From assembly GCA_036172245.1 (NCBI GenBank), contig JAYWIR010000053.1, positions 62,001 through 126,000 of the forward strand: DNA of 64,000 bases, written 5' to 3'. This DNA is from Raillietiella orientalis (Eukaryota). The notes below the pieces were generated by a model. That model was not told where the DNA came from. It saw only the letters and a program-made list of their open reading frames with translations, and did no database searches. Positions 8,297-59,382 of the stretch are shown here, in pieces. The number at the start of each line of letters is the position of its first letter. The stretch's first letter is position 1. The translations under genes and the position numbers were made by a program.

Positions 8297-9845
8297 GCGA
8301 AACGGAGGAAAACCGCTCCCCGCCGCGAAAAAACCAAGAGCTGCTGCGTCGTCGTAGTGTTTATTAACGCCATCGACCAATGCGGCGCTAAAGAACTCGC
8401 TGCTGCCCGTGCTTTACCCTCCGTTGACAAAGTCAACAGGGAGGGGAGCGAGGCTGCGGCGTCCGTCATCGAGCCCACGCTCGATCACGTCGCCTTTCAG
8501 CGTGCCGCGGAGGTGCTGGCTGCCTCGTTGTAACCGGCCGCCTTCAAGGCTGGCAAGAAGGCCGTCAGGCGTCCGGCTTCCCCTCAGGAGTCGGCCACTT
8601 CCGACCCCGAGGCGAAGGCCGGAAACAGAGCATCCATCTCCGCGGCACCCCGTAAAAAGGCAGGACGAAAGTCCACAATGCCCCTGGAGATCGTCTTCCC
8701 CGACAAAGGGAAAGAGATGGCTTCCGGTTGCGAGGGTGCCATGAGCGTGGGAAACTCCCGGGACCCGTCGCCTGAGAAACTCCCACGCTCCGGCTCGGAG
8801 GAGATGGACGGGCTGGAGGCCGAACCTGATCGGCCCCCAAAACTTACGGTGCCTGATCGGGCCAAGGTGCCTTTAGTGCCTGAAGAGGCCTCCTTCCCCA
8901 CGGACATCCCGAACACATGCCCCGCGGCAGGTGTCGCGACGCCACTTTCCCAGCCATAATGACGGGAATCGCCTCCCGTCTTCGTCTGCTGTTCGCCTGC
9001 TGGAACGTCAACGGGCTAAGCAACGACGGCAAGAGGCGTGACGTGGCCGCCACCCTGGCATCCTTCGACCTGGTGCTGCTGCAGGAGATCCACGTCATCT
9101 CCGCAGATCAAGCCCGGGAGAACGAACGGATCTCGGATGGTCGGATGCTGTGGCGCTGCGGTACCGCGAAATCTAGCGGTGTCGCCTTCCTGCTCCGACC
9201 AGTCATCGAGGCCGCAATAAAGGACTTACGGTTTGATGACGCCGGTCGCGTCGGTCAGCTGACTCAGCTGCTCCATCTCAATCGACCTGGTCGTCACCAA
9301 CTTGTACGCTCCTAGCGTTGAGGACGCGTTGCGGGCGAAGGCAAGAAGAGAATTCTACCTTGCCCTCGGACGCAATTGGCTGATCGAAGCAGACGTTTGC
9401 AAAGCGCACCTGATCGCAGGTGACTTCAAAATGCGCCTGCTTTCATGTGCGCCGGATACACTGAACGACCGCGTCAACAAGTTGTGCGCGCAAATGCATA
9501 CGTGCAACTTGCTGGCCGGAGATACGGACATGGAACGGAGCATCCATCAAGTGTACCTTGACCAGCACCTATGCTCTCGCGTGGGCAGGCGCGGCAAGTT
9601 ACGGTGCGAGCTGTCGGACCATGGCCGAATCGGGTTCGAAGTGCATCTGCGCCACAAGGGCCCCCCCTTGTCAGCGTGGCGTCTGCCAGGGAACTCTCTG
9701 AAGTTCCCGGACGCGACAGAACATCTCCGCGCGTTCATACGGAACTTCAGAATGCGGACGCTTCAGGACTGGGACCGCTTCAAGCTGTCTTCCCAGGAGT
9801 TCTGCGACCGGTTTCCTTTGCATCGCCAACCTGCGGGATTTGGGA
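8297..9845 (+). mobile_element. C-type LINE fragment E-left (ORF1 C-terminus + EN)
   Basis: Aligns to ~13915-15447; TAATG at 8957-8961; WNVNGL, LLQEIH, AGDF, SDH; ends at GGGATTTGGGA 9835-9845. Confidence 0.88.
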
Positions 9846-10056
9846 TTGTCACCCGGGTACGCCCGGGCCGTTTATTGAAAAAACTCTGGATAAACGTGGT
9901 ACGAGGCCTTACTAAGGTCCACACAACACCGGAGCTGCCGGGACGCTAAGACGCAGCCCGGCGTGACGCTCCTTGTCAGTGGAGGGGGATAGGGATCAAA
10001 ACAAAAAGAAAAATAAACATAAGGAAAACAAAGAAAGTTCAAGGGACAGGAAGGGA

Positions 10057-12834
10057 TCACAATCCACTAGGAGGTGGGCCCATCCTTCGCAGGATACCCT
10101 CCAGGTCCATGTTCATGCTTCCCAGATGGGGCCATCTTGCAGCTCTGCGCATGAAGCGGATCGCATGCAGGATGACATCCCTCGCGTGGGCATCGACTCC
10201 TCCGTCGCGAATGTCGCTCCAGGCGACCACGATGCCCCGGATGCAGCAGCGGGCTGCGGCGGGCTGCAGGGCGCCCCGCACGGAGAGGGGCCGAAGAACG
10301 ACTCTGGGCGCGCTGCCCATTGGGAGCCCCAGGGTCGTCCCGAACCGTTCCCACAAGGGTCGGAGGGCAGCAGAGACAACAAGTAGGTGGGGGAGCGATT
10401 CCCGCTTGCCGCACCTGGCACACTTACGCCTTATACTACCCCGGGTCCAGTGGAAGCGGCGCACGTTGCAGGGTAGACCCCAGTGCAACAGCAGCAGCGC
10501 CGACTCTTGCCACTTCAGGGGGAGAAGCCTGCATCCGAATAATATTGAGGGCCACTTCAGTTCATCCGTCGGCATGGCGAGCAGCTAGCCCCAGCGACCA
10601 AGTCCACTCAAGAGGGCACTCGGGGTCGTAGCATCTGCCAGTTCTTTCATGGTTCAACCGCCCATCTTCTTTTCCTTGCCTGCGATTCGGCAGGAGGCTT
10701 GCGACTTTTGCTTGCGGCCACTGGTTAAAGCCCTTCGTAGGTAGGGCAGGGTCGAGGCCAGAGTGGTAGTCTCCGCTTAGGTGCTCCTGGCGGGACACTC
10801 CAGAGTAGTCCGCAGTGTCCAGCAGGCGTTGGGGCCGAATTGCAGGCGGTTCGAGTCCTGGGAAGTCTGGAGGTTCAGATTGGCTTACGTCGCAACGCAT
10901 TCCTCCAGCCAGGCTGAGGAGTTGGCGGGCTGCATACCGTCCAGCCGTGGTCTCTCACCGGGGCTTCCATGCGCCCAAGGAGAAGGCCGCATCTTCTAAA
11001 CTTCCTGTCAGAGCACAGAAGGTACGACGAGAGTCCTTGCGTCCTGGACACACGGCTGGCAAGGATACGGGCCGGAACGCACCAAGAAGTGCTCCATGAC
11101 ATTGCTGCGATAACGAGTGTGCGGCATTGCAGCTGTATGTCCACGCGTTCCAGCGTCAGGAGGCCGAGACCGCCGTCCAGACGAGGAGCGCACAAGTCAT
11201 CTAGAGGCACACGTGGCATCCCGCTGCGCCAGAGGGCGATGCGGAGTAGGTCCTTGGTCCTCTTTTTAATGTCAAGGGGGACGGAACAAACAAAAAGCAG
11301 GGGGCGGAGGATGGAAGCCGCGAACGCGTTCCACACCGCGGCTCATTCCGGCAGAAGGAACAAGCCTTCCAGGAACGGGCCGATTGCCAACTCTACCTTT
11401 TGGAGACGACCAGTCCAGGCTTCTGCGAGGCAGAATTCCTTCAACGGGACACCCAGGTACTTCAAGTACCTCGCCGTGAGATCCATAAGCGGACCCAGTC
11501 CTGCTGCTCAGCCCACGCCGCACCTACCGGTACGACCGACGACTTCGCCTTGTTCACTGTAAGTCCGGTCCCGCGGCTAAGCACAGCGAAGAAATCCCCG
11601 ACCGCCTTCGCCGGGGTGGACATCGGCAACAGAGGCAAAAGATCGTCGGCGTACGCTGCTACGGCGGGCGTGCCGGTACACGACCTCGGCAAGGGAGCCA
11701 AATTCACCCTGTACGCTCTCAGCACCACCTCAAAGTAGGTGCTAAAGAGCAGGGGACTGAGACTGTCGCCCTCCCGTATGCCCCGCCGTACCGGCACGCC
11801 GTACGCCATTTGACCTCTGAAAGAGATATTGATCAGCGCGCTGCGCCAGCAAGAGCGCAGGTAGGTGAGTAGGGAGGGAGGAAAGCCCATGCGTCCCAGG
11901 AGCTCCAGCAGGAGATCCTGGTCCACGCAGTGAAACTCTTTATGCAGATCGACTGCGATAGCTAAGGCTCCCTTTTCCACCTGGGAGTCCTGTCCCTGCC
12001 CGGCTGACGCCCCCAAAGCGGGGCTACCAATCCTTCCCGCTTCCTTTTCTTCACTACTCTGCACATGAAACCATGTGCTCGCGAAGAAGAGGTTGGCCTC
12101 CATACTTCGCCCGGGAACAGCGTAAGTCTGCTCCGGGCTAATTTTGGAATTGGCCACCTGCCCCAGACACGAAGCCCACAGTCCGGCAATCAACTTGGCG
12201 TCCGTGTTCACAATTGTGATCGGACGCCAGTTGCTGAGTTTCCTGAGGTCTCCTCCTTTCGGAAGGAGCCTCACTCTGGCTGATCGAAACGAGGCGGGTA
12301 CATCGCCTTCATCTCGGCTCAGCCTTGTCAACTTAAGCACCAGGGGTGCCAACTCTTCCGCGAAGCATTGAAAAAACTCCGCAGGCAGGCCGTCCTCCCC
12401 TGTTGCTTTCCGCCTCTTGAGCCTTTTAATACCGGCGAGAATTTCGCCGGTGGTAAAAGGCTCGTCGAGGCTTTCCTTCTCCTCCTCCCCTATTAACGGG
12501 GCACCGTTCGGAAGCAAGCGCCGAGAGGCATCTTGTTCCGGATGCTCCCTGGCGTAAAGGGAGGAATAATAACGCCGCACGAGGTGGCGTATTCTAGCCG
12601 TAGCCGAGTGCTCCCGGCCCTGGTCGTCCAGCAAACTGGCCGATTCTGATTGCCAGGCTTGACTTTCGACCCCGGCTCGGTACTCTGCCAGGCGACGGAC
12701 ATTAAGGGTCCTCGCGTAACGACGGGCATACAAGTACGCTTCTTCGTTACGGATCCCCTCCCCAAATTTCCGGGGCAGGAGGTGCAAGGTGAACTCCTCG
12801 CAAAACTCGCAAACCAATTAGCGAGATTGCGGAG
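10057..12834 (-). pseudogene. D ORF2 3' part (RT + C-terminal CCHC)
   Basis: NWRPIT, GIREGDSLSPLL, YADD, CARCGKRESLPHLL. Confidence 0.9.
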
Positions 12835-12919
12835 CGTCGAGCGGACGTGTCTTTTCGCTGCTCCTGAATTTCCATTTCCGGTGGTGTTTTGTGTGGTGTG
12901 GGTGGAGGATTAGGCAGCA

Positions 12920-14559
12920 ATGCCTGATTCCACCACCGGTGAGATTCCGGGGGCGATGACCCCATTGCCCACGGAGGAGATGGAAGTGAGAGCGCCCGCC
13001 ACTACTGATGCGCCCCCAGCCTAACCCAGGGCTTAGAACGCCGTGACTGCCGCGCCCACGCCGGCGGCTGTGGCAGAAATGCGGGCCTACCTGGAGGAGG
13101 GGTACAACCCACCCCTCCTATAAAAGGTGGGCGGATTATATTCTCCCCAGAGCGCGCCCGCCTTCTCGCAGGCGATGCGCGCTCTCGACGTAAAAAAGGA
13201 GGAGCTTCTGGCTATGTCCGTCAGAAGCGGGGGTCAATTTGTGGAAGTTATCTGCAACGAGGCAACTCTTGCGCAGAGACTTCTGCGAACCCCAGTAACT
13301 ATGGGCAGACGGAGGCTTCTCCCAATTACTGAAGACCGGTCGGTGATCATTCACCTGACCGGTATCACGTTCCGGATGACCAAGGAGGCAGTGCGGAACG
13401 AAATAAATAAATTTGCGACCGTCCACGCGCTGTGAGGTAAGCCTACTCCTTTCGTTGATTTCGATAGGGTGCTTGGCGGCCTGGATGCGGCGCGAGTGAC
13501 GGTTCGCGAAGGTGTGAGTTTCCCCACTATCTCACCGTAAACGGTGAATCCGTCGACGTGTGTTACGTGGGGAAATCCAAGTTCTGCGGCTGCTGCAGCA
13601 GCTTTGGTCACCTTAAAATGAGGTGTTCGAGCGTGCAGTGCCAGCAATGCAAACAAGCGGGGCACACCCTTCTGGTGTGCCCCCAAAACACAGTCCGCGT
13701 CGTGTACGCGAAAAACGCGAGAAAGCGCGCGGCTAAAAAAAGAGAGAAGCTATCAGCTCGTGCTGCTGCTAAGGAGGTCACCTCCGCCACCAAGTCCAAG
13801 GCCAGCCCCGAGACCCCGGCGAAAAATGCCTAAAAGGTCGAGGGCGATGGTCAAGAGCCAGGGTGGCAGAAGGTCGACCCCAAGGAAAAAACCCATAAGA
13901 AGGGAAAAAACGTGGCGAAACGGAGCGAAACCGCTCTGCGCCGCGAAAAAATTAAAAGCTGCTGCGTCGTTATAGAGCGGATTCCCGCCATCGACGAATG
14001 CGGCGCTGAAGAACTCGCTGCTGCCCCTGCTCAACCCTTCGTTGACAAAGTCAACAAGGAGGGGAGCGAGGCTGCGGCGTCCGTCATCGAGCTCACGCTC
14101 AATGACGTCGCCTTCGAGCGCGCCGCGGAGGAGCTGGTTGCCTCGCTGCAGCCGGTTGCCCCCAAGGTTGGCAAGAAGGCCGTCAGGAGTCCGGGTTCCC
14201 CTCAGGAGTCGGCCACTTCCGACCCCGAGGTGACGGCCGGAAACACAGCATCCATCTCCGCAACACCCCGCAAAAAGGCAGGACGAAAGTCCACAATGCC
14301 CCAGAAGATAGTCTCCCCCGACGAAGAGGAAGAGATGGCTTCCAGTAGCGAGGGTGCCATGAGCGTGGGAATCTCCCGGGACCCGTCGCCCGAGAGAATT
14401 CCACGCTCGGACACGGAGTGGATGGTGAGAATCGAGGCCGAACAGGTACCCCAGGCGCCTAAAGAGGCCTTCGTCCTCGTTCCGATGGTCCTCGCACCGA
14501 TGGACTTTTCCTACACCTGCCCCGCGGCAGGTGCCTCGACGCCACTTTCCCAGCTATAA
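12920..14559 (+). pseudogene. C1 ORF1
   Basis: AYLEEGYNPPL; CGCCSSFGHLKMRC, CQQCKQAGHTLLVC; several stops and frameshifts; TAATG at 14557-14561. Confidence 0.86.
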
Positions 14560-15447
14560 TGCCGTGAATCGCCTCTCGCCGTCGTCTTCTGAACGCCTGT
14601 TGGAACGTCAACGGGCTAAGCGACGACGGCAAGAGGCGTGACGTGGCCTCCACCCTGGCATCCCGCGATCTGGTGCTGCTGCGGGAGATTTACGTGATCT
14701 CCGCAGATCAACCCCGGGAGATCGAACGGATCTCGGGTGTGCGGTTGCTGTGGCGTTGCGGCACCGCGAAATCAAGCGGTGTCGCCTTCCTGCTCCGGCC
14801 AGCCATCGAGGCCGCAATAAAGGACGTTCGGTTCGAAGACGGAGGTCCCGTCGGTCAGCTGACTTTCAGCTGGTCCGACTCTATCGACCTTTTCGTCACC
14901 AACCTATACGCTCCTAGCGGAAACAACGCGTTGAGGGCGAAGGCAAGAAGGGAATTCTACCTTCCCCTGAGACGTGATTGGCTGACCGATGCAGGAGTTC
15001 GTAAAGCTCACCTGATCGCAGGTGAGTTCAACCTGCGCCTGCTTTCTGGTGCGCCGGATACACTGAACGACCGCGTCAACGAGTTGTGCGCAAAAATGCA
15101 CACGCGCAACTTGTTGGCCGGGGACACGGCCATGGAAAGCAGCATCCATCACGTGTACCTTGATCAGCACCTATGCTGTCGGGTGGGCAGGCGCGACAAG
15201 GTACCATCCGAGCTCTCGGACCATGGTCGGATCATGTTCGAAGTGCGTCCGCGCGAAAAGGGCTTCTTCTCGTCAGCGTGCCGTCTGCCAGGGGACTGGC
15301 TGAAGTTTCCCGACGCATCGGAGCACCTCCGCGCATTTATTCGCAGCTTCAGGATGCAGACACTTCACGACTGGGACCGCTTAAAGCGGTCGGTCCAGGA
15401 GTTCTGCGACCAGTTCCCCCTGCATCGCCTACCTGCGGGATTTGGGG
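14559..15447 (+). pseudogene. C1 ORF2 endonuclease domain
   Basis: WNVNGL, NLYAP, AGEFN, SDH, FPLHRLPAGFG, then the B1 3' end. Confidence 0.9.
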
Positions 15448-18020
15448 TTGTCACCCGGGTACGCTTGGGGCGTTTATTGAAAAAACTTCACATAAACGTG
15501 GTACGAGGCCCCACTAACGGCCACACAACACCGGACATGCCAAGACGCCGGGACGCAGCCCGGCGTGACGCTCCTCGGCAGTGGAGGGGGATAGAAATCG
15601 AAACAAAAAGAAAAATAAAGATAAAGAAAACAAAAAAGAGTTTAGAGGGAGGTTAAGGGATCACGTTCCACTTAGAGGAGGGTCCATTCTTCGCAGGATG
15701 CCCTGTAGGTCCATCTTCATGTTTTTTAGATTGGGCCATCATTCGTGTCGGCCAGCCAATCGCGCTTCAGGGTTTCCAGCAGCATGGTACGGTCGCTGTA
15801 TCCCCCTTTTCCGCTCAAGGAGTACACGTTTGTGACGATCAATTCGATCGAGTCGGACCAGCTGAGAATCAGCTCACCTACCCGACCGTGGTCATCAAAG
15901 CGTACGCCCTTCACGGCAGCGTCGATGGCCGGTTTGACGAAGAACGCGACCCTGCAGGTGTTGCGGGCGCCGCATCGCCAATACAGTCGACCCCCCGCGA
16001 TCGTCTCGATCTCCTGGACTTCTGCCGAGGTGAACACGTGGATCTCCTGCAGCAGGGCCAGGTCGAAGTCACGCAGGGTATCGGCCGTTTCTCGTCTGTT
16101 GCCGTCGTCGCGCAGCCCGTCGACGTTCCAACTGGCCACGCGGATTCTACGGCGACAGGCGAGCCCAGGTATTATTCCTGGAAAATCGGCTGTGCGGCGT
16201 CCGCCACCTGTTGGAACGGGACGCTAGTTGGAGGAGGAGGGTCAGGCGCTGCGTGCACCTGGTCCCGCTCCTCCTTCGGTAACGGCGCGTCGAGCGGGTC
16301 ACCCTCAGGTGGGATCGCGCCTACCTGTTGGCCCTCCTCCATGGGGGCGGGCTGTTCAGGCTCGACCACTGCAGTGAGGACTTCGCCCCGCTGCTCACCC
16401 TCCTCCATGGGGGTGGCCGGCTCGACGGCTTCCGAGAATGGGAGTTCCCCCTCCGGGATTCCCACGTTACCGCTAGCTTCCTACTTCTCCTCCTCGCTGG
16501 TGGATGGGAGGCTCCTCCTGGGTTTCTGGGACTTGCGTCTCGACTTCCTGGGGTGTGCCTTCGACGAGGAGGATGCACTACCGGCCCCCAGGTACGGGTC
16601 ACCTGTGGGGGCCTTTTTCGCGGGAGCCGGCCTTCGCACGGCCTTGCGTGAGGGGTTCTCACGCTCCGCCAGCGTGGCCGCGAGCACCTCCGCCGCCATT
16701 GCGAACGCGGCGTCCTCGGTGTCGACCGGCGCGTCGCACGGCTGACCCTCTGTTTGCACAGAGGGTTCGCCGTCGCGAACTTCGGGCGCGACGGAAACGG
16801 CGAGGGGAGGCTCGTCGCCCCAGGTGGCATCTTCCGGTACGACGATACGTTCCAGTGCCACCGTGCACTCGCGTACGGTTTTCGAACGCGGCCCGCGTTT
16901 TTTTGCCTCACCGGCCAGCTTCTCTTTCTTCTTTTTAAAAGGAGATTTTTTCTGTTTTCTGGCTGCTACAAGTTGCAAGCCCTCTTCACCTTCCGCCTCT
17001 TGGAAAGGTTTACCCTCCGTCTTTTCTTTTGGAGGTTGAGGTTCTGGCAGCTTCAGCCGGCCAGCGTCCGCCTTAGGTCTTGTGACCTTTAGTGAGCGTT
17101 TCTTCTGCGCCTTTTTCGCAACAGGAGGAACCGGGGTGGGGCATTTTGGGCACATACGTCAAACGTGGCCCTTCTCCCCGCACATGTGGCATTGGATGTT
17201 AGGACACCTCTTGCGAAGGTGTCCTACGGTATCGCAGTAGCCGCAATACCGGGGCTTTCCCACGTACCAGAGGTCCACGCTCTCTTGCGCGACCTCCAGC
17301 TTGTGGGGAAGCCCACAATCCTTACTGACGGTTACCCGCTATGCAGCCTGGCCTTCGAAATGGCTATTGAAGCCTTCAAAGATGGTTGTCTTAGGCCACA
17401 GCGCGTGCACCTCGCCTAACTTCTGCAGTTCTTGTGCTACCGCAGAGCGAGTCATACGGCTCGTTATTCCAGTGAGATGGACCACCACGGAGCGGTCCAT
17501 CGTCACCAGCAAGATCTTGCGGCCGTCGACGTTCAGCGGGTTGGTGATGAGAGTCTGAGCCAAGGTGATCTCCTTGCACACCACCTCGACTCGCTGACCT
17601 CCGCTGAGAACGGACAAACCGTCAAGATCTTGTACTCTTACTCCGGCGTTTTGCAGCGCTTTCGAAAACGCGCGTGCCGTTTTTCCATCAAATAAGGGGC
17701 CTACCTGGTATAACAAGCTGGGCTTGTACCCAGCTGCCCGGTAGGCCGCCATCTCGGCCACGGTTATCGCGCTCGGCGCGGTCACCATGGCGCTCCAGCT
17801 CCTCGCCTTGGGCGGCGAGGGCGATTCCGGGGCGGACGCTCCTGATTCTGTAGGCTGTGGGGGTGGGCAAGCCTCCCCCACACCTACCTCCATCGTGGTG
17901 TCCCCAGGCATCGCCGCCATCGGACACCAACGATGTGAAAAAGCACACACAGAACCAAAAAAACCGCTTTCTGCTGCTCGTTTGCAGAGCGCCGGAAAAA
18001 CACGTCCCCTCTCGAGGAGA
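15448..18020 (-). mobile_element. LINE family B copy B1, internally deleted (about 3 kb of ORF2 missing)
   Basis: Both termini present; EN ...DWLADTN fused at ~15741 to the ORF2 C-terminus; flanked by GGGATTTGGGG. Confidence 0.9.
16172..17920 (-). pseudogene. B1 ORF1
   Basis: GYKPSLLYQVG, knuckle region, PMEEG repeats; broken by stops. Confidence 0.85.
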
Positions 18021-18246
18021 GGGATTTGGGGTTTACACCCGGGAACGCCCGGGGCGTTTATTGTATAAAGCTCTACAAGAAAACGTGGTACAAGGCCCCA
18101 CTAACGGCCACACAACACCGGACCTGCCGAGACGCCGGGACGCAGCCCAGCGTGACCCTCCTCGGCTGTGGAGGGGGATAGGGATCAAAACAAAATTGAA
18201 AATCAAAATAAAGCAAAACAAAAAGAGTTTGAGGGAGGGGGAGGGA

Positions 18247-23591: not shown

Positions 23592-23691
23592 CGGACACCA
23601 ACGATGTGAAAAAGCACACACTGAACCCAAAAAACCGCTTTCCGCTGCTCGTTCGCGGAGCGCCGGAAAAACACGTCCGCTCTCGAGGAGA

Positions 23692-46300: not shown

Positions 46301-46965
46301 CCAACCGGCGAGGTGGGAGGTTTCCTGCACAATAGCGGGAAAAAACAAACCCCTTGGTGCCTGGAAGACGAGTGAGCTGGCGGACGCCTCCACTCCTCGT
46401 GTTACTGCAATGGGACTTCTCCGATGGGCAGAAGAACTTGCTTTCACCCCCGAAGAACTCGTAGTCCCTTCACAGTGTATTGAGAGTTCGCTGCTCTTCC
46501 TTGCCTGGAAACAAGCCGTGTTTCTTTTCGTTCACTGGGGTTTTCAGTGCAACGAGCGTTGGCATCGTGACACCGGGGGACTTGCGTCTGCGAACTGCGT
46601 TTAGTGCGGATCGACGGAGTCGATTCCGCACCTACTTCTGGACTGCGGTGTCCTACATGTACTGTAGCGTAGGCTAACAACAGCACTAATGCATCCCGTG
46701 GACACCGGAAGAGTCTTGCTGCGACGATTCTTCACGCCGAGCGGGCTGTCACTAAGCGCAAGGATGGCAACCATTGGTTACATACGCGCGATAGTTTCCG
46801 TCCGCCAGGCGTTGGTAATCAACGGACAGCACCAAGAGGTAATCAGCAAAGCATCCTTCTACATGGGAGCATTTGCTAGATGGCCTCATTTGACAGAGGA
46901 GACAAAAAGGAATCTCTGGAATACACCGCCGGTTTACACACGCTCAGCAGCGGCCAACCCGGTGA
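43374..46965 (+). pseudogene. A2 ORF2 (EN-RT-CCHC), disrupted
   Basis: 839-aa open segment 43620..46139; YADD mutated to HADD; stops at 43568, 46139 and 46604. Confidence 0.92.
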
Positions 46966-47278
46966 TCATTGCCCTACCCTCCATAAACTATTTTTGTATT
47001 TTCTTTTTACACCCGCGTCCCCATAGGCTCCGGAACATTTTAGGTGCTCTTCGTTTAAATACCCGTGAGTACGGAGCCTAACCAAAAACCCGTTACCCTT
47101 CCCTCTAGTTTTTGATTTTTGTTTGTTTCCCCTCATTCCTCCCACGTTGCGAGCGGTGTGTTTACCAGGCCTGCGTGCCGGTAATTTTTCTATGTTCTCG
47201 GTCGTTTTCTTGGTTGGGGACATTGTCTTTGACCAGTTTATTATTATTAATAAACACCCCGGCGTGACCGGGTGATAA

Positions 47279-50200
47279 ATTTCAATCTACGCCTTCAAAC
47301 AGGTGAGCCGGGAACACAAGTGAACGCGATGAACGAGTCGTGTACCGCCATGCGTGCGCGCAACTTGTTCGCGGGTGAGAGGGGAATGGTCCGCAGCATC
47401 GACCACGTCTTCCTCGATGCTGACCTGTGTTCACGGGTCGGCAAACGGGGGTGGGTTGCGTCAACGTTGTCGGACCATTCCCGGTTAATTTTCGAGATGC
47501 GGCCTCGCGACAAAGGACCGCGATCCAGGGACTGGCGTCTACCCGGAAACTCGACGAGACTCTCAGGTGCGAAGAAACACCTTCGCGAATACCTGAGAGG
47601 CGTCACGCTCCAGAATCTCCAGGGCTGTGACCTTTTTTAGGAATCGGTAAGGGAGTTCTGCGAGCAGTTCCCCCTGGACCGCCTGCCTTTCGGATTCGTC
47701 GAGGGTCCTCGCAACCATCGGGCCTATTAACAGGCCCGTTGGTACGAGCGAACCCCTAATGTCCGTCGCCTGTCCGAGTGCCGCGACGGGGCCGAACGCC
47801 AAGCCTAGCAATCCTGGTCGGCCAGCTTTCTGGAGGACCAGGGCCGGGAATGTTCCTCCCCGGCGTCGGTACGGCATCTTGTGCGGAGTTATTATTTCTC
47901 CTTTTACGCCCGGGCACCCCCGGAAAAGATGCCTAGCAACTCTTGCTTCCGGATGGTGCCGCGGCAATAGGGGAGGAGGAGTCGTTAAGCCTGGATGAGC
48001 CTCTTACCACCGGCGAAATTCTCGCCGGTATCAAAAGGCTCAAGAGGCGGAAAGCTCCAGGAAAAGACGGCTTGCCCGCGGAGTTCTCTCAGAGCTTCGC
48101 GGAAGAGCTGGCGCCCCTGCTGCTTCAGCTGACAAGGCTGATCCGAGACGAAGGCGATGTTCCCGCCTCGTTTCGGTCACCTAGAGTGAGGCTCCTTCCG
48201 AAAGGGGGAGATCTTAGGAATTTGAACAACTGTTGTCCGATCACGATTGTGAATACGGACGCCAAGTTGGTTGCCGGGCTATGGGCTTCGCGTCTGGGGC
48301 AGGTGGCAGAATCCATAATTAGCCCGGAGGAGACATATGCTGTTCCCGGGCGAACTATGGATGCCAACCTCTTCTTCGCGAGCACATGGATGCACGCGCA
48401 GAGGTGTCAATAGGAAGGGAAAGGAAAAATCGGCGACCCCACTTTGGGGCCGCCAGCAGGGCAGGGAATGGACCCTTAAGCGGGAATGGGGCCTTAGCGC
48501 TCGCAGTCGATCTCCATAAGGCGTTCCACTGTGTTGACCAGAAGCTTTTGTTTGAGCTCCCGGGTCGCATGGACTTCCCACCCTCCTTGATCAACTACCT
48601 GCGCTCTTGCTGGCGGAATGCAATTATCTCCATCTCTTTCAGTAGACAGAAGGTGTATGGCGTGCCGGTGAGGCGGGGCATCAGGCAGGGCGATAGCCTC
48701 AGCCCCCTGCTCTTCAGCACCTACTTTGAGTTGGTGCTGAGAGCCTACAGGGTGACTTTGGCTTCCTTGCCGAGCTCGTGTCCCGGCACGCCCGCCGTAG
48801 AAGCCTATGCCGACGACATTCTACTACTGTTACCTATGTCCACTCCGGCGAAGGCGGTCAGAGACTTCTTCGATCTGCTCAGCCGTGGGACCGGACTCCA
48901 GGTCAACAGGGCGAAGTCGTCGGTGGTGCCAGTAGGTGCCGCGTGGGCAGGGCAGCAGGACTGGGTCCGTCTGGGGATCCCCACGGCGAAATGCCTCAAG
49001 TACCTTGGTGTGCCGTAGGGTGACTACTCCTCTGCGGAAGCGTGGTCCAGCTGTCTTCAAAAAGTTGAGACGGCGATCGGCCCGTTCCTGGAAGGCAAGT
49101 TTCACTTGCCGGAACGGGCCGCGGTTTGGAACGCCTTCGCGGCCCCCATCCTCCGCCCCTTTCTTTTTGTTTGCCCCTCCCCAAAAGTAGTTAAAAAGAG
49201 GACGAAGGACCTCCTCCGCATCGCCCTTTGGGGCAAGGGGAGGCTCCGAGTCCCTCTGCAGGACTTGTGCGCTCCGCGTCGGGACGGCGGCCTTGGCGTC
49301 CTGACGCTGGAGCGCGTGGAGAAGCAGCTGCGGTGGCTAAACCCTCGCCATCGCAGCGAAAATGTGGAGCACCCCTTTGTGCGTTTCGGCCCGCCACCTC
49401 GCCAGGGGTGTGTCCTGATGCGAAGGACTCGCGTCGTTTCTTCTGTGCCCTGGCCGGAAGATCCGAAGATGCGGTCTTATGCTCGGACGCATAGCAATCT
49501 TGGCGAAGACGAACGGTTGGATGGTTTGTGGCCCCGTCAACTCCTCCGCCTGGTTAGAGGAGTCTGCTGGCACATGGGCTAAGCTGAACCGGAGGAGTGA
49601 AAACCACATGAACTGCCTGCGCATCGGCCCATACGCCAACCGCACCCTGCGGGAAATACTGGAATTTCCTCGAAGTCGCAGGTGGGCGTTGACAACCCCC
49701 CTTGCTACGGCGATGCCCTACCTCCTGAGAGCGCCTCAGGATCGCCGGAAGCCGAGGTGGCAAGTCACCTGCCAGATCGCAGGCAGGGAGAAGAAGTTAA
49801 GCGGCTGGACCACAGGAGAACTGGCGGACGCCACGACCCCGAGCGTCCAGCCGCGTGGATTAATGAGATGGGGCGAGCTGCTCGCCATCCCTACGGATGT
49901 GCTTAAGTGGCCCCCGGTACTAAAGGAATCCAGGATCCTGCCCTTTAAATGGCAAGAGTCGGCGTTGCTACAGCTGCACTGGGGTTTACCCCGCAACGCA
50001 CGCCGCTTCCACTGGACAAGGGGAACTGTGGATCCTGAGTGTGTCAGGTGCGGAGAGCGAGAATCGTTCTCCCACCTTATTGTGGACTGTGCTGCCATCT
50101 GACCCCTCTGGAAACGGTTCGGGGCGACCCTAGGGCTCCCTACGGGCAGCAACCCCAGAGAAGTTCTTCAGCCCCTCTTCGTGAAGGACGCACTGCAGCC

Positions 50201-50414: not shown

Positions 50415-51162
50415 TCCCTTCCCTGCCCTCCAACTTCTTTTTGTCTGTTTATTTTTTTATTTTTCTTTTTGTTTTATCCCCATCCCCCTTCGCTGCTGAG
50501 GAACGCTACGCTGGGCTGCGTCCCGGCAGGTCCAGTGCATATGGCCGTGAGCAAGGCCTTGTACCGCGGATGTAGAGTTTTTTAAAAATAAATGCCCTGG
50601 GCGTACCCGGGTGTAAACCTCCAAGGCTGGCAAGAAGGCCGTAAGGCGTCCGGCCTCCCCTCAGGAGTCCTTCACTTCCCACCCCGAGGTGGAGGCCGGA
50701 AGCGCAGCCTCCGTTTCCACGGCACCGCGCAAGAAGGCTAAACGTAAGTCCACAAAGACAAGGAAGCTCGTCTCCCCCGTCGAAGGGGAAGAGATGGCTT
50801 CCGCAAGCGAGGGTTCCATGAGCGTGGGAAACTCTCGGGATCCGTCGCCCGAGAGACTCCCACGCGCGGACACGGAGGGGATGGAGGGGGTGGAGGCCGA
50901 ACAGGTGCCTCAGGTGCCTGAGAAGGCCGAAACCCCCATGGTCATCCCGCCCGCCTCGCAAGAGGAGGGCTCCCCAAACCTTAATCTTCCCAGCAGTAAT
51001 GCCGGGAATCTCCTCCCGCCGTCGTCTGCGCATCGCCGTTTGGAACGTGAACGGCATGACAGACGCCGGCAGGAGACGAGACATGGCCGCCCTTCTGGAG
51101 TCCTACGACCTTGCGCTGCTGTAGGAGATCCACGTGATCTCTGCAGAACAAGCGCAAGAGAT

Positions 51163-54100
51163 TTCTCACCAGGTTACGCCGGGGCGTTTATTCCATATAA
51201 CATAACCAAAAAAAGCAATTATACAAAATAAACCAGTTGGGAACCAAACTCCCAACCGACGACTGAACAAGAATGAAGAGAATATTGCTGGCACGCAGGC
51301 CAGAGTAACAGTTTCTTGAACGGTGCGGGGGGACGGGAAAAACAAAGAAACCAAAATAAAATAGAAACAATGAATAAGGAGGACGGGATAAGTGTCTTTG
51401 GGATCGCTCTGGAAGACACAAGGATAAAAGCATGGGCACCGGAAATTTTACCGAGCGAACGGGAACGGGGTATGGGTGGGCGAGAGGTCGCAGGGGCCAC
51501 CGGATTACGCCGTTCTCAAAGGTGTGTAAACCGGCGATGTATGCCGGTGATGTACTCATTCACCTTGTCACGAAGATGAGACCACCTTGAAGCCTTCTCC
51601 ATGAATTGAGCTGCAAGCAGGTGAGCCTCCCTTCGCTACGATGACAACTTCAGGGCGTAGCGGGCCTTCACGATGGCGCGAACGCAACACATGGTTGCGA
51701 CAATCGCGCCAACCGAAAGTCCATTTCTGCTGAAGAAGCGCCGCAGCACATCAATGGCAGTGCCTCCTTTTGGCATGATGGCCGAAGTGAGCCTTCGCCA
51801 CAGTTCCCGGAGTTCACCGCAGTCCAGCAAAAGGTGCGGAAAAGATTCGATCTCTCCGCACCTTAAACAGTTTGGCAAAGCAGCTCCCCCGGAAACGATG
51901 CTTCGCTGCCCATTACAGTGTAATGCACAATGTGAAAAGAGCAGCACATCTTGCTTCCACTTAAGGGGGAACCTGGAGCTGCCCAAGCAAACGGGGGGAA
52001 CCAACATCTCTCCGGGGGGCACACTTAAGTGTTCGCTCCACCGAAGCAGGCCCTTCGCCCGATTCCGAGGTGTGGAGGCTTGCACCAGCTCCTTTGTCTT
52101 CCAGCTGCCGAGGAGCTTACTGACTTACGCTATTTTGCAGGAGAACTTTTATTCCGCCGGCAGGCAACCGTCGTTGCCTGCCCTGAGGGGAGACAGCGCT
52201 ACGGAGAGTGGTGTGGCGGCCAGACGATCGGACAACTTCTTGTCCTGCATGACTTCGTCCATTTGATGAATGAGGAGAAGTCGCAGGCGTCGAAGATCTT
52301 CCGGGCGCGTTCCTTCGGAAGCTGCCCACGATGAAAAAGATTCCTGCCGCCATGCATTAATGTTCATGGGGCGGCAGGAGATCCAGCTTTGGGCTTCCAG
52401 CAGTGAGGACAGCTGCCTCAGCGGGAAGCCAAACCCTATTCTGGTGTGCCGAAAGTGGAGTAGCAACGAAAGCAGTCCCTCGCTTCCCGTGCAGCGCCTC
52501 AGTATAAGGCGTGCGGGTAAGCACCACGGCGTACACCTCAGCTCGGCACAGAGCCGAGGCATGCGAAACTGCACCTGCAGTTTGATGCTGTTTAAGTTGA
52601 GGATGCCAAAGCCTGCATCCTGATGCGGCATCACAAAGTCTTTAAGTCTAACACGGGATCTTGCAGCGCCCCACAACGCTTTGAGTAGAAGGCGCTGCGC
52701 CCAGACTTTGACTTCCTGGGGGGGTGGACAAACAAAAAACAGGGGGCGGAGGAGAGGGGCAAAGAAGGTGTTCCAGATGCAGGCCCGTTCCGGCAAGACG
52801 AACTCGCCTCCTGAAAACGTGCCAAGTGCACGCTCTGCCTTCCGAAGGCAGTCCGACCACGCTTCTGAGATGCAGAAGTCGCCCAACGGCACGTCAAGGT
52901 ACCTGAGGCACCTGTCCTTGGGGATCCCCAGACCGATCCAGTCGTAGTGCATATCCCACGTCGCAACCACCGGGACAACCATACACTCACTCCTTTTAAC
53001 GCTCACGCCGGCACCGCGACGAATCAACTCAAAGAAGTCTTCAGGCGATGTCACAGGGGTCGACATGGGCAACAGGAGAAGCAGGTCGTCGCCATAGGCT
53101 GCTACGGCAAGCGTACATGGACAGGAGCTCGGCAGGTTGGATAGCGTCAGCCTGTAAGCTCCCAACACCAATTCAAAATAGATGCTGAAGAGCAGCGGGC
53201 TTAAGCTATCACCCCGCCTAATTCCTCGTCGTACTGGCACGCCATACACGCGACAGCCACTGAAAACAATGGATGTAATCGCGTGGCGCCAGCAGGAGCG
53301 CAGGTACGCCAACAGGGATGCCAGAAGACCCAGACGTTCCAAAAGCTCAAGAAGAAGCTTTTGGTTCACGCAATCTAAAGCTTTGTGCAGATCGACTGCA
53401 ACCGCCAAGGCTCCCGGTGTCTACCTTTGCGTCCCGCGCCTTCGTCGGTGAGAGATCGCAGGCGTCGCTTCCGCACGACGATCCACCGCCACACGATGCT
53501 GCAATTTCAGTGATGTACGGATGAACAAGAGATTCGCGTCAATGGACCGCCTAGGAACAGCGTACGTCTGCTCCGGACTTACCAAGGATTCCGCGATCCT
53601 ACCCATCCGCGCCACCCGGAGTTTCGAGAAAAACTTGACGTCTGAATTCACTAATGTGATAGGACGTCAGTTGTTCAGTTGGCGCAAATCTCCGCCTTTC
53701 GGCAGTAGACGCACCTTCGCTGATCGAAACGAGGCGAGCACATCGCCCGAGACTCGCATCAGCGCCGAGAGTTGGAGCACCAGGAGGATGAACTCCGCCG
53801 TAAAACACTGAAACAATTTCGAGGGGAGCCCATCTTCGACTGGCGTTTTTTGTCTCTTGAGCTCCGAGATGGCCGAGGAAATTTCCTCTGCCGTGAAGGG
53901 CTCATCAAGACGCGCGCGATCCTCGTCGTCTACAACGGGTGCATCAATCGGCAGAAGCAGCCGGAAGAGGCTGCTTTCCGTCGGTGCCTCTGTATACAGA
54001 AAAGTGTAATAAAGCCTGACTATCAGTCGCACGTCGGCTGGAGCCGAGCATTCACGGTCCTGGTCGTGGTGCAGTACTGTCGCCTCTGACTGCGAGACCT

Positions 54101-54213
54101 GGCGCTCGGTCTTGGCCTTGTACTCGGAAAATCGACCAAGGTCCGACCGCCTGGAAAATGAGCGGGCCTGCAGAAAAACTCTACTGTTGGCTGCGCCCTC
54201 TCCGAAGCCGCTT
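51163..54213 (-). mobile_element. LINE family F (A-related) 3' half: linker, RT, CCHC, 3' UTR
   Basis: GFGEGAANSRVFLQARSF; GIRRGDSLSPLLF, YGDD; CLRCGEIESFPHLLLDC; AATAAA-hairpin at 51163-51192. Confidence 0.88.
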
Positions 54214-54232
54214 TTAAGCGGCTTCGGAGAGG
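54197..54232. repeat. Perfect 17-bp inverted repeat with 2-nt loop at the F/B3 junction
   Basis: CCTCTCCGAAGCCGCTT-TT-AAGCGGCTTCGGAGAGG. Confidence 0.95.
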
Positions 54233-57200
54233 TTTGGGACGACGAACCCTCTGTTTGCACAGAGGGTGCGCTGCGCGAATCGCACGCCGAAATCGAGGAC
54301 GCCGCGTTCGCGCAGGCGGCGGAGGAGCTCGCGGCCACGCTGGCCGAGCATGAGAATCCCTCGCGCAAGGCCGTGCGAAGGCCGGCTCCGCCGAAGAAGG
54401 CCTCCGCAGGGGAGTGCTTCCTGGGGGCCGGAAGTGCATCCTCCTCGTCGGAGGCACCCCCCCGGAAGACGGGACGCAAGTCCCAGAAACGAAGGAGGCG
54501 CCTCCCCTCCACGAGCGAGGAGGAGAAGCAGGAATCCGACGGCAGCGTGGGAATCCCGGAGGGGAAATCGCACGCGCGGAAGTTGTCGAGCAGGCCACCC
54601 CCATGGAGGAGGGTGAGCATAGGGGCGAAGTCCTCCTTGTCAGCGCGGACCCTGTACAGCCCACCCCTATAGAGGAGGGATAACAGATAGGCGTGACCCC
54701 ACCGGAGGGTGACCCGCCCGACGCGCCGTCACCGATGGAGCAGGAGGACCAGGTGCTCGAGGCACATGTGCCTCCGGCTCCACCTAGTGTGCCGCCCCAA
54801 CAGGTGGCCGACGCCGCCGAGTCGATTTTTAAGGAACAACACCTGGGCTCGCCTGTCGCCGTCGAATCCGCGTGGCCAGTTGGGACGTCAAGGGGCTGCG
54901 CGACGACGTCAACAGACGAGATACGGCCGACACCCTGCGTGAGTTCGACCTGGCCCTGCTGCAGGAGATCGACGTGATCACCTCGGCAGACGTCCAGGAG
55001 ATGGAGACGATCGCGAGGGGTCGACTGTATTGGCGATGCGGCGCTCGCAACACCTGTGGTTTCGCGTTTTCCGTGAAGCCGGCCATCGACGCTGCCGTGA
55101 AGGGCGTACGCTTCGATGACGACGGTCGGGTCGGTCAGCTGACTCTCAGCTGATCCGACTCGAACGAATTGATCGTCACGCACGTGTACGCCCTAAGAGG
55201 GAAAGGGGGATACAGAGACCGTACCAGGTTGCTGGAAACCCTGAAGCGCGACTGGCTGGCCGATAGGAACGTGCGGAAGGCACACCTGATAGCTGGGGAC
55301 TTTAATCTCCGTCTGCTGTCAGGTGAGCCTGAAGCACAAGAACGCACGGCCAGCGAGCTGTGCGCTGCCATGCGCACGCGCAACTAGTTGGCGGGCGCGG
55401 AGCGAATGGATCGCAGCATCGACCCTTTCTTCCTGGATGTCGACCTGTGCTCGAGGGTCGGCAAACAGAGAAAAGTTGCGTCGACGCTGTCGGACCATTC
55501 CAGGATAATCGCCGAGGTTTGCCCGCGCTATAAAGGACCCCTGTCCAGGGCTTGGCGGCTGACTGGGGACTGGACGCGGTCCTCAGGTGCGAAGGAACAC
55601 CTTCGCGAATTCCTGAGAGGCGTCACCCTCCGCAGTATGAAAGATTGGAACCTCTTCAAGGCCTCGGTCCGCGAGTTCTGCGAGGAGTTCCCCCTTCACT
55701 GCCTGCACCTTGGATTTGGTAAGAGGGCTTGGAACCATAGGGCCTATCTACAGGCCCGCCGGTACGAGAGGACCCCCAATGTCCGTCGCCTGGCCAAATA
55801 TCGAGCCGGGGCCTAGCGTTAAGCCTGGCAATCTGGTTCGGCCAGCTTGCTGGACAACCAGGGCCGGGAGCGATCAGCCCCACCCGCAATCAGGCACCTC
55901 GTGCGGCATTATTATTTCTCCCTCTACGCTAGGGCGCCCCCAGAGCGGGACGCCTCGCGGCTCCTGCTTCCGGGTGGAGGCCAGACAATAGGGGACGAGG
56001 AGAAGGAAAGCCTCGACGAGCCTTTTTCTACCGGTGAAATTCTCGCCGATATCAAAAGGCTCAAGGAGCGAAAGGCGCAAGGGGAGGACGGCCTGCCTGC
56101 GGAATTCTTTCAATGTTTCGCGGCAGAGCTGGCACCCTTGGTGCTTCAGTTGAACGGGCTGATCCGAGACGAAGACGACGTTCCCGCCTCGTTTCGGTCA
56201 GCCCGTGTGAGGCTCCTCCCGAAGGGAGGAGACCTGAGATCCTTAGGCAATTGGCGTCCGATCACAATTGTGAATAGGGACGCCTAGCTGGTCGATGGAC
56301 TGTGAGCTTCGCGTCTAAGACAGGTGGCAAACTCCATAATTAGCTTGGAGCAGACATACGCTGTTCACGGGCGAAGTATGGATGCCAACCTGTTCTTCGC
56401 GAGCGCATGGTTCCATGTGCAGCGCTGCCTGAATAAAACTGGCGTAAAGATTGGCAACCCCACTTTGGGGCCGCCAGATGGGCTGGGAATGGGCACCCGG
56501 GCTGGTAAGGGGGCCCTAGTGATCGCGGTCGATCTCCATAAGGCGTTCGACTGCGTTGACCAGGAGATAATGCTGTAGCTTCTGGGTCGAATGGGCTTCC
56601 TACCCTCCCTTCTCTCCTTCCTGCGCTCCTGCTGGCGGAATGCGATGATTATTGTCTCTTTGAGCGGTCACAAGGTTTATGGCGTGCTGGTGCGGCGGGG
56701 CATACGGCAGGGCGATAGCCTCAGTTTCCTGCTCTTTAGCACCTACTTTGATTTGGTGCTGAGAGCGTACAGGGTGACTTTGGCTGCCCTGCACAGCTCG
56801 TGGCCCTGCACGCCCGCCGTAGCAGCATACGCCGACCACCTTCTGCTCATGTTGCCTATGTCCGCCCCGGCTGCCGCAGTCGAGGATTTCTTCGACCTGC
56901 TAAGTCACGGGACTGGACTTCGGGTAAACAAGTCGAAGTCGTCGGTCGTACCGGTGGGTGCGACGTGGGTCGTACGGCCTGACAGGATCCGCTTGCTGAT
57001 CCCCGCGGCCAGGTACTTAAAGTACTTGGGTGTCATGTTGGGGGAATTCTGTGTTGCAGAAGCCTGGCAGGTCGTCTCCAAAAGGTAGAGTTGGCAATCG
57101 GCCCGTTCCTGGAAGGCAGGATCCTTCTGCCGGGACGGGCCGCGGTGTGGAACGCGTTGGCGGCTCCCATCCTCCGCCTTCTGCTTTCTGTTTGCCCCGT

Positions 57201-58644
57201 TTCTTGTGACATTCAAAAGAGGACCAAGGACCCACTCAGCATCGCCCTCTGGGGCAGCGGGAGGCAACGTGTGTTTCTAGATGACTTATGCGCTCCTCGT
57301 CGGGACGGCGGTCTCGGCCTCCTGACGCTGGAGCGCCGGGATATACAGCTACGATAGCGCACCCTCGCCATTGCAGCAAAGTTATGGAGCACTTCTTGGT
57401 GCGTTCCGGCCCGCAACCTCGCCAGCCGTGTGTCCAGGACGCAAGGAATCGCGTCGTACCTTCTGTGCTCTCGCAGGAAGTTCAGAAGATGCGGCCCTCT
57501 CCTTGGGCGCATGGAAGCCCTGGTGAGAGACAACGGTTGGACGGTATGCAGCATCGCCAACTCCTAGGTCTGGCTGGAGGAATCCGTTGTGACGTGGGCC
57601 AAGCTGAACCTCCAGACTTCCCCGGACTGGAACCGCCTGCGATACGGCCCCAACGCCTGCTGCACACTGCCGACTACACTGGAGTGTCCCGCTAGGAGCA
57701 CGTGGGCGGGACTACCACTCTAGCCTCGACCCTGCCCTACCTACGAAGGGCTTTAACGAGTGGCCGCAAGCCAAAGTGGAAAGTCTCCTGCCGAATCGCA
57801 GGCAAGGAAAAGAATATGAGCGGTTGGACCATGGGAGAACTGGCAGATGCCACAACCCCGAGTGCCCTCCCGCGTGGACTTCGTCGATGGGCGATCTGCT
57901 CGGCATCCCGACGGATGACCTGAAGTGGCCCCCAATATTAATCGGATCCAGGCTTCTCCCCCTGAAGTGGCAAGACTCGGCGCTGCTGCTGTTGCACTGT
58001 GGTCTACCCTGCAACGCGCACCGCATCCACTGGACGCGGGGAAGTGTAAGGCCTGAGTGTGCCATTTATGGGAAGCAAGAATCGCTCTCTCACTTACTTG
58101 TTGACTGTGCTGCCCTCCGTCCCCTGTGGGAACGGTTCGGGACGACCCTCGGGCTCCCAATGGGCAGCGCGCCCAGAGAAGTTCTTCGGCACCTCTTCGT
58201 GCGGGACGCCCTGCAGCCCGCCGCAGCCCTCGCCGCCTTCTGCTGCATCCGGGGCATTGTGGCGGCCTGGAGCGACATACGCGACGAAGGAGTGGATGCC
58301 AACGCGAGGGATGTCATCCCGTATGCGGTCTGCTTCATGCGGAGATCTGCGAGATGGCCCCATCTGGGAAGCATGAAGATGGACCTGGAGGGCATCCCGC
58401 GGAGGATGGGACTTCCTCCCAGTGGATTGTGATCCCTTCCCCTCCCTCCAAACTCTTTTTCTGTTTTCCTGATCTATATTTTTTTTTGTGTTTTGATCCC
58501 TATCCCCCTCAACTGCCGAGGAGCGCTACGCCGGTATGTGTCCCGGCGTCCCGGCAGGTCCGGTGTTGTGTAGCCGTTTGTGGGGCCTCGTACCACGTGC
58601 ATGTAGAGTTTTCAATGAACTCCTTGGGCGTACCCGGGTGACAG
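54233..58644 (+). mobile_element. LINE family B copy B3, 5'-truncated in ORF1
   Basis: EPSVCTEG ORF1 tail; EN; RT (YADH); ORF2 stop at 58432; 3' AATGAA-hairpin followed by CCGCAAATCCC. Confidence 0.9.
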
Positions 58645-59382
58645 CCGCAAATCCCGAAGGAAGGCGATGCAGAGGGAAATGGTCGCAGAACTCCTGGATC
58701 TACCGCTTGCAGCGTTCCCAGTCCTGAAGTGTCTGCATCCTGAAGCTCCGAATAAACGCGCGGAGGTGTTAAGCCTCGTAGGGAAACTTCAGCCAGTCCC
58801 CTAGCAGACGACACGCTAACGAGGGGGGGCCCTTGTCGCACGGACGCACTTCGAACATGATCCGACCATGGTCCGAAAGCTCGGATGGTACATTGCCGCG
58901 CCTGCCCACCCGAGAGCATAGGTGCTGATCAAGGTACACGTGATCGATACTGCTTTCCATGGCCGCATCCGAGGCCAACAAGTTGCGCGTGTTCATTTCT
59001 GCGCACAACTCGTTGACGTGGTCTTTCAGTGCACCCGGCGCAGCTGAAAGCAGGCGCAGGTTGAAATAACCAGCGATCAGGTGCGCTTTGCAAACTCTTG
59101 CATCGGTCAGCCAATCGCGTCTCAAGGCAAGGTAGAACTCCCTTCTTGCCTTCGCCCTCAACGCGTAGTTTCCGCTAGCAGCGTATAGGTTGGTAACGAA
59201 CAGGTCGATAGAGTCGGACGAGCTGAGAGTCAGCTGACCGACGCGACCTGCGTCCATGGAACCGAACGTCTTTTATTGCGGTCTCGATGGCAGGCTGAAG
59301 CACGAAGGCGACACCGCGTGATTTCGCTATGCCGCAACGCCACAACAGCCGTCCACCCGAGATCCGTTCGATCACCTGGGCT
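58645..59382 (-). mobile_element. C-type LINE EN fragment C' bounded by B3 and G
   Basis: AQVIERISGGRLLWRCG...KARREFYL...IDH...SDH...FPLHRLPSGF. Confidence 0.88.

Follow-up and report, generated by a model that had tools for sequence, protein, structure and literature searches.

Probable site-specific insertion of an L1-like retrotransposon lineage into the coding sequence of its sister elements in Raillietiella orientalis

In this study, we analysed 64,000 nucleotides of Raillietiella orientalis DNA (assembly GCA_036172245.1, contig JAYWIR010000053.1, positions 62,001 to 126,000 of the forward strand), hereafter called the window and numbered from its first letter, and found four copies of B-type long interspersed nuclear elements (LINEs) inserted antisense at one and the same nucleotide of three related, C-type elements. 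Based on the anatomy of these junctions, we consider it likely that family B is a sequence-specific, L1-like lineage with an apurinic/apyrimidinic-type endonuclease (APE), and that its landing pad is formed by the G-F-G linker codons on the coding strand of the sister C-type element. A first-pass annotation of the same DNA had proposed repeated antisense insertion of B at one C-type nucleotide; the junctions described below support that proposal, and they also place it within a wider set of elements that serve both as inserts and as hosts. All counts, alignments and trees refer to copies within the window.

Results

The insertion site and its junctions

The site is an 11-mer, GGGATTTGGGG, of which exact copies stand at 15437-15447, 18021-18031 and 23692-23702, all on the plus strand, around a tandem of two inserts (B1 and B2), just as the first-pass annotation had reported. 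Copies with one mismatch mark two further hosts, GGGATTTGGGA at 9835-9845 (plus strand), where insert D lies in host E, and GGGATTTGCGG at 58645-58655 (minus strand), where insert B3 adjoins host C'. With up to one mismatch allowed, the window holds seven copies of the 11-mer against 1.59 expected, a number reached in none of 100 shuffles; two of the seven (at 7165 and 60748, both on the minus strand) belong to no junction. Across hosts E, C and C', homology extends over the 60 nt preceding the site, which read, in host sense, ...TTCTGCGACC..TTyCCyyTGCATCGCC..CCTkC, while the letters after it give the B-family 3' end in reverse complement, TTGTCACCCGGGTACGC.. or TTTACACCCGGGAACGC... Seen from the insert, the 3' end is ..CCCGGGTGWMAA, and the C-type flank expected next to it is CCCCAAATCCCGCAGG... 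This 3' junction is identical in four of four inserts (B1, B2, D and B3) and in all three hosts, always in antisense orientation and always with an intact insert 3' end, so that the earlier count of four inserts in three host copies, with D in E and B3 in C' sharing the site of B1 and B2, is borne out. The 5' ends of the inserts range from full (B1, B2) through near-full (D) to truncated (B3). Every C-type copy found in the window (3/3) is occupied.

In coding terms, the junction falls in the G-F-G codons between the APE and reverse transcriptase (RT) domains of the C-type element. The reading of C, ..FPLHRLPAGFG, stops at 15447 and restarts in register at 23692 as GFGEGPRN, and B1 and B2 are each flanked by the exact 11-mer, which is thus an 11-bp target-site duplication (TSD). 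The earlier statement that host reading resumes in register therefore stands for C and fails for E, which restarts about 450 bp downstream of the site; at B3 it stands in part, since the right-hand flank does start in register at SGFGEG but belongs to another lineage than C'-left. The parts of hosts and inserts are as follows, with ORF denoting an open reading frame.

8297-9845, plus strand: E-left, a 5'-truncated C-type element (end of ORF1 and APE) ending in GGGATTTGGGA, 83.6% identical to C-left over 1550 nt
9846-12834, minus strand: D-right, the RT-to-3'-end part of D, whose 3' end ..CCCGGGTGACAA adjoins the site in E; it holds a 15-bp TSD copy at 12820-12834
12835-15447, plus strand: C-left, with full 5' end, ORF1 and APE, ending in the 11-mer at 15437-15447; Exo_endo_phos domain in the ORF at 14568-15656
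15448-18020, minus strand: B1, intact at its 5' end as well as its 3' end, with B2 coordinates ~2286-5365 deleted internally
18021-18031, plus strand: the middle 11-bp TSD copy, which separates B1 from B2
18032-23691, minus strand: B2, full-length, 5660 bp, with ORF1 bearing a CCHC motif, APE, RT and Cys-rich C-terminus; ORF2 is split in three frames
23692-26505, plus strand: C-right, with the third 11-mer (23692-23702), GFGEGPRN.., RT and 3' end ..AATAAACGCCCAGGCGCAACCGGGTTTCA
26506-29368, minus strand: D-left, in which a 15-bp TSD copy (26506-26520) is followed by APE, ORF1 and a near-full 5' end
29369-31707, plus strand: E-right, the C-type RT-to-3'-end part, 74.1% identical to C-right coordinates 463-2804
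51164-54215, minus strand: F-right, an RT-to-3'-end part that starts in register as ..SGFGEGAANS; its 3' end adjoins element G in antisense at ~51163
54216-58644, plus strand: B3, 5'-truncated at B2 coordinate ~1241, whose 3' end ..GGGTGACAG adjoins the site in C'
58645-59379, minus strand: C'-left, a C-type APE fragment ending in GGGATTTGCGG, 88.6% identical to C-left over 736 nt

The four inserts

B2 (18032-23691, minus strand, 5660 bp) served as the reference insert. Both B1 and B2 start at the family 5' terminus, TCTCCTCGAGAG.., and B1 aligns to B2 in two stretches, 15452-15740 to coordinates 5366-5656 and 15740-18020 to coordinates 1-2285. The identity between the two is 72.6% over coordinates 1-1240 and 87% beyond; because their divergence is 27% in one region and 13% in the other, B1 and B2 are of different lineages, derived from separate master copies, and therefore not a tandem duplicate. 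B3 matches B2 coordinates 1241-5656 at 88.2%. The halves of D, which are separated by C, are collinear in B2 coordinates, D-left running to ~2653 and D-right from ~2685; D-right matches coordinates 2685-5656 at 83.2%. Compared with B2, D-left is 59-71% and D-right 83.5% identical, and D accordingly derives from another master copy, a different recombinant lineage. The 5' part of D holds a 24-nt tandem repeat of 6.7 copies (29032-29193; CAAGGGGGCGGTTGCCCCCTTTTT on the plus strand).

More generally, the elements of the window are mosaics of modules with different histories, with a boundary near the APE/RT linker. B4, a B-like element described below, is 83% identical to B2 over coordinates 1241-2285 and 76% in the RT, and C-left and C'-left agree at 88.6% while the matching right parts agree at 70%.

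Hosts and the order of nesting

The elements around the tandem form a four-level, LINE-only nest, E > D > C > B1/B2, in which orientation alternates at each level. C (12835-26505, 13.7 kb with B1 and B2) lies complete, 5' terminus to 3' end, between the halves of D, and is bounded by an exact 15-bp duplication, AGCGAGATTGCGGAG, at 12820-12834 and 26506-26520, the only two copies of this word in the window. Its antisense insertion point in D lies upstream of the latter's G-F-G codons, at a distance of about 60 nt. From these boundaries, C entered D by its own retrotransposition after D was in E, and the terminal branches shorten in the order of nesting: E 0.13, D 0.10, C 0.047. Since E-right starts about 450 bp past the site, the insertion of D in E carried a target deletion or was followed by a later rearrangement. 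Beside the truncated 5' end of E, at 5770-8360 on the minus strand, lie two tandem ORF1-type frames, of which 7740-8298 is 75% identical to 6517-7075.

The flanks of B3

B3 is the weakest of the four cases. Its left and right flanks come from different lineages: F-right shares 70% identity with C-right and 69% with family A, and its start precedes its G-F-G codons (GGCTTCGGAGAG) by a few nucleotides. Because the would-be duplication copies agree at just ~6/16 positions, the two flanks belonged to separate molecules at insertion, and an extra event is needed; ectopic exchange between two occupied sites, complementary DNA bridging two cleaved copies and an assembly mis-join are each possible. 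Ahead of the 5' end of B3 stands an inverted copy, 17 nt long, of the F-right flank next to it, with GAGG microhomology to B, so that 54197-54232 forms a perfect 17+2+17 palindrome reading CCTCTCCGAAGCCGCTT AA AAGCGGCTTCGGAGAGG on the host-sense strand.

At its other end, C'-left starts at C-left coordinate ~1903, where the 5' end of an element J (plus strand) adjoins. Two antisense junctions thus share one position of the APE (codons ..EIERISG, C-left coordinates 1903-1912), namely 51163/51164 (3' end of F against G) and 59379/59380 (5' end of J, plus strand, against C'-left). As G (50618-51163, plus strand) and C'-left (minus strand) meet at coordinates 1912 and 1903, we considered them as one element split by an inversion and rejected this as the leading reading on their identities to C-left, 73.7% and 88.6%, respectively; two antisense insertions at one APE site fit them better than an inversion.

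Class of the elements

The window has a G+C content of about 58%, 85% of it is self-repeated at E<1e-15, and Rfam and tRNA scans over the 64 kb found no Rfam RNA or tRNA gene. Its stop-to-stop ORFs comprise an ORF1 with CCHC knuckles and an ORF2 with APE endonuclease, reverse transcriptase and Cys-rich C-terminus, and this layout identifies families B, A and C as putative L1-like retrotransposons that lack long terminal repeats (non-LTR). In B2, the APE matches Pfam PF03372 (Exo_endo_phos, E=1.5e-14, 20886-21890, minus strand) and the RT matches PF00078 (RVT_1, E=4.6e-18, 19468-20817, minus strand); Pfam finds both domains in ORFs of families A and C as well. The zf-RVT match in the C-terminus is weak (E=0.018, 16 bits, under the 27.5 cut-off), and zf-CCHC passes its cut-off of 20.8 in one ORF1 (22.2 bits), the other ORF1s being weaker. 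No LTR or terminal inverted repeat was found in B2, whose sole border direct repeat is the 11-mer.

Variable 5' truncation and short TSDs (11, 15 and 7 bp) are LINE features that occur in the window. Ten of ten 3' ends share AATAAACGCCC.GGCG..ACC.GGGTG..A across families and stop at ..GGGTG(N)2-3A, 29-31 nt past an AATAAA. Examples are:

26477-26505, plus strand: 3' end
41346-41375, plus strand: 3' end
50587-50617, plus strand: 3' end
18032-18062, minus strand: 3' end

None of these ten ends carries a poly(A) or A-run; poly(A) or simple-repeat tails are found at the 3' ends of LINEs, though not of all of them. When the ten ends were folded, the shared motif proved to include a conserved 5-bp hairpin without covariation, and for that lack we dropped a structural role for it.

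A protein search with the family A ORF2 returned 23 matches, the best at 55% identity and the remainder at 30% or less; several distant protein relatives carry zf-RVT (PF13966). The ORF spanning the C/B1 junction, taken as the query of another such search, gave zero matches, and the ESM Atlas held nothing beyond generic APE-RT clusters.

Sister lineages with landing sites of their own

The description of B as the insert and C as the host, on which the first-pass annotation was built, proved too narrow: D, a B-type insert, itself hosts C, and both family A and the C-type elements have landing sequences of their own. Family A (~5.9 kb) lies in sense orientation in the GDFN codons (GGA GAT TTC AA|T) of the APE of B-like hosts (GATTTCAA), at the following places.

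35468-41375, plus strand: A1, in tandem with A2 in the GDFN codons of B4
41383-47278, plus strand: A2, in tandem with A1 in the same codons
35461-35467, 41376-41382 and 47279-47285, plus strand: the 7-bp duplication ATTTCAA of A1 and A2
up to 5016, minus strand: A0, in the same GDFN codons of another host, with its junction at 5017-5024 (minus strand)

The host flank of A0 is about 60% identical to that of B4. We had considered the A0 flank as a duplicate of the A1 flank, on a 91.6% high-scoring segment pair that ran into the host; direct alignment of the flanks (~60%) assigned them to separate hosts. Family A is, from these junctions, a second site-specific lineage.

The C-type elements are inserted antisense, and C and E have A.CG.AGATTG.CG in common in their 3' flanks. 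That of E (31708-31729, ATCGGAAGATTGACG..) is similar to the 15-bp TSD of C and reads as GDFN-like codons of a minus-strand LINE remnant. B4 (33.16-35.47 and 47.28-50.62 kb, split by A1 and A2) interrupts the C-like element G between ORF1 and ORF2, in sense orientation and with a short imperfect duplication, CCTTCA / CCTCCA, at 33155-33165 and 50617-50626.

Discussion

Independent insertions or a spread junction

We conclude that at least three of the insertions (D, B1 and B2) are independent events, and probably all four are. Several observations weigh against such repeated, site-specific insertion and are gathered here. A clean two-sided duplication is present in just one of the three hosts, all copies are degenerate, and the flanks of B3 fail to match. 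Unoccupied near-matches of the site exist, namely TGGATTTGGGG (10/11 match, 7165, minus strand) and 18 other TTTGGGG heptamers outside the junctions, and B4, which is B-like (76% identical to B2), sits at another site and in sense orientation. Alignments run through the junctions at uniform identity: C'|B3 (55671-59395) aligned to E|D (12810-9098) reaches 82.7% over 3733 nt. For E|D (8297-10136) aligned to C|B1 (13915-15740), the identity is 83.5%. In maximum-likelihood trees, C, C' and E trifurcate, and a star results for the inserts over their 3' 295 nt; host and insert trees lack resolution and are not incongruent. Finally, B1 and B2 agree at 93.8% in the APE against 72.6% in ORF1, a sign that gene conversion does occur in the region.

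The last of these points leads to the alternative that survives best, that one or two true insertions took place and the occupied junction was then spread by gene conversion or ectopic recombination among LINE copies, the site being also a recombination boundary. The mosaic boundaries near the APE/RT linker, seen in the unequal identities of D-left and D-right to B2 (59-71% against 83.5%) and in C-left/C'-left against C-right/F-right (88.6% against 70%), are what such a process would leave, as are the conversion-like agreement of B1 and B2 in the APE and the flanks of B3, which come from two lineages broken near the same homologous position. Nevertheless, conversion does not make exact 11-bp duplications around B1 and B2, nor differing 5' ends. 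The insert 3' ends beside the junction are, moreover, at 82-83% no closer to one another than unlinked parts, with B1 and B3 (82.1%) less alike than C and C' (88.6%). We therefore regard this explanation as unlikely.

We give even less credence to the scenario that the first-pass annotation had named as its own counter-case, in which a single ancestral C::B composite was copied, by segmental DNA duplication or by a read-through C transcript carrying antisense B, and then diverged and rearranged. The through-junction alignments would follow from it, as would the similar identities of hosts and inserts (C-C' 88.6% with B2-B3 88-89.5%; C-E 83.6% with B2-D 83.5%) and the absence of incongruence between host and insert trees. 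The comparison of these trees, put forward earlier as a way to confirm independence, indeed permits no claim of incongruence; the right-module tree gives (D,(B2,B3)) with full support. Counts of private changes among three taxa are more telling: they stand at 78:46:25 for the host half (E:C':C) and at 21:24:27 for the insert half (D:B3:B1; chi-square p=0.0006), which counts against one composite because halves inherited together should keep equal proportions. A copied composite likewise leaves unexplained that the 11-mer flanks B2 on both sides, next to a B1 that differs by 27% in its first 1240 nt, that D has a different left module, and that C entered D with its own 15-bp TSD once E::D existed. 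The three 5' junctions, moreover, are all unlike: C shows a clean TSD, E has lost ~450 bp of target, and B3 is cut short at coordinate 1241 beside a 17-nt inverted copy. The 5' junctions, the TSD of C, the 5' modules and the branch lengths thus all disfavour a duplicated composite, less firmly in the case of B3.

It is scarcely credible that the whole arrangement is an assembly artefact, a repeat-rich region mis-joined at a short common word, for even though 85% of the window is self-repeated, C'-left, B3 and F-right are oddly arranged and the contigs of a public run (X1) are mostly 85-95% alike, four junctions lie at exact element termini with TSDs, the copies are 11-28% apart and so too diverged for collapse of near-identical repeats, and the nested parts (D-left/D-right; C-left/C-right) are collinear.

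Independent insertion draws modest support from the same run, in which one contig joins 15436 to 23692 with 11 letters that fit both sides, as expected of an unoccupied C-like site with a single 11-mer. The shorter side of this contig, at just 26 letters, speaks for caution, and the run, with 7% of words, serves for neither assembly validation nor copy number. Twin priming, considered for the pairing of C-left with antisense B, was rejected since the inverted part lies beyond an intact 3' end and not on the 5' side.

Site specificity and a proposed mechanism

The heptamer TTTGGGG occurs 22 times in the window, whereas GGATTTGGGG occurs four times, in three junction copies and in the unoccupied TGGATTTGGGG at 7165. 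At the homologous position, GGGATTTGGGG is confined to C-type copies; seven other elements (B2, B3, B4, D, A0, A1 and A2) differ there and are unoccupied. Their variants are:

CAGATTCGGGG: homologous site in B2
TGGATTTGGTA: homologous site in B3
CGGATTCGTCG: homologous site in B4
GAAATTTGGGG: homologous site in D
GCGGTTTCGGA: homologous site in family A

With the heptamer unoccupied elsewhere and B4 at another site, recognition is therefore longer than the heptamer and differs between lineages. The primer-strand end at B4, ..CCTTGGAGG, resembles ..ATTTGGGG. A degenerate form of the junction pattern was met at no fewer than 119 loci in metagenomes, of which none was similar to the junction or B2 (blastn) or to the B RT (tblastn), so that all are chance matches.

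R1, TRAS and Tx1L insert by target-primed reverse transcription. By analogy with these elements, the B endonuclease would nick the C-type sense strand right after ..CCTGCGGGATTTGGGG; the freed 3'-OH would prime reverse transcription from the conserved B 3' end, ..AATAAACGCCCCGGGCGTNCCCGGGTGWMAA, which has no poly(A); and the other strand would be cut 11 bp upstream, to give an antisense insert with an 11-bp duplication. Because this duplication leaves the site restored to either side of an insert, one and the same copy of C was struck twice, first by B1 and later by B2 or in the opposite order. The role of the endonuclease in setting the specificity, and which nick comes first, are likewise drawn from the analogy and may prove different for B.

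Beyond the single lineage, one may speculate, tentatively, that the window holds a guild of sister LINEs, each with an endonuclease evolved for the conserved coding sequence of the others (B for G-F-G codons in antisense, A for GDFN codons in sense, C-type elements for CAATCT-type sequence in antisense). As hyperparasites, such elements would disable rivals and spare host genes, their mutual targeting would both build and confine LINE-only islands of the Zepp type, and the variants of the B site in B and D themselves (CAGATTCGGGG, GAAATTTGGGG) would represent self-immunity gained in an arms race.

Comparison with known target-specific LINEs

Target-specific LINEs are known for ribosomal DNA, telomeres, small nuclear RNA genes, microsatellites and a few DNA or LTR transposons. 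In their fixed insertion nucleotide, fixed orientation and constant short TSD, and in the use of a conserved multicopy target as a safe haven, the inserts described here are like R1/R2 and TRAS/SART as their mechanism is generally understood; unlike in those, the target is another parasite and not a multicopy gene or repeat of the host. Similar in insertion behaviour, on which this comparison rests, are elements of the Tx1 group, for which the available part of one report describes Tx1L in the piggyBac-type Tx1D of Xenopus, Tx1-Mar in Mariner-N4_AMi, Tx1-8_Crp and Tx1-4_AMi in LTR retrotransposons, and Tx1-9_AMi in Harbinger elements (PMC4494074). As there, APE-type non-LTR copies occupy a fixed position and orientation of another mobile repeat, with sequential double insertions. 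In contrast to the Tx1 cases covered in that part, it is a sister LINE of the same superfamily whose protein-coding sequence forms the target here, inserts are also hosts within a four-deep nest, and at least two sister lineages use different sites.

In architecture, the window resembles the Zepp and ZeppL clusters of green algae, which are islands of nested L1-type LINEs only, GC-rich and without other genes, and whose tendency to cluster is left unexplained in the sections available to us (PMC3446292, PMC8226300, PMC9940879). Those sections give no nucleotide-level target or orientation rule for Zepp nesting, and they describe one family where the window has several diverged ones, here without poly(A) tails. 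Our literature search, judged largely on titles and abstracts and with the original Zepp description outside its scope, found no LINE described as inserting site-specifically into a sister LINE's coding sequence, and hosts and inserts that exchange roles four levels deep were likewise undescribed in the literature so covered. If the pattern were to hold genome-wide, it would offer a concrete nucleotide-level mechanism for the growth and confinement of LINE-only islands, a question that the Zepp and ZeppL papers, as far as they were available, leave open. The elements would also constitute a natural set of closely related APE endonucleases whose recognition sequences are rather long and differ from one another; such a set could help to understand, and perhaps to engineer, target choice in target-primed reverse transcription.

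Near the far end of the window, at 62578-63999 on the minus strand, lies a more distant APE-RT LINE, which shares no nucleotide similarity with the window's other families and is recognised by its RVT_1 match (E=1e-12).

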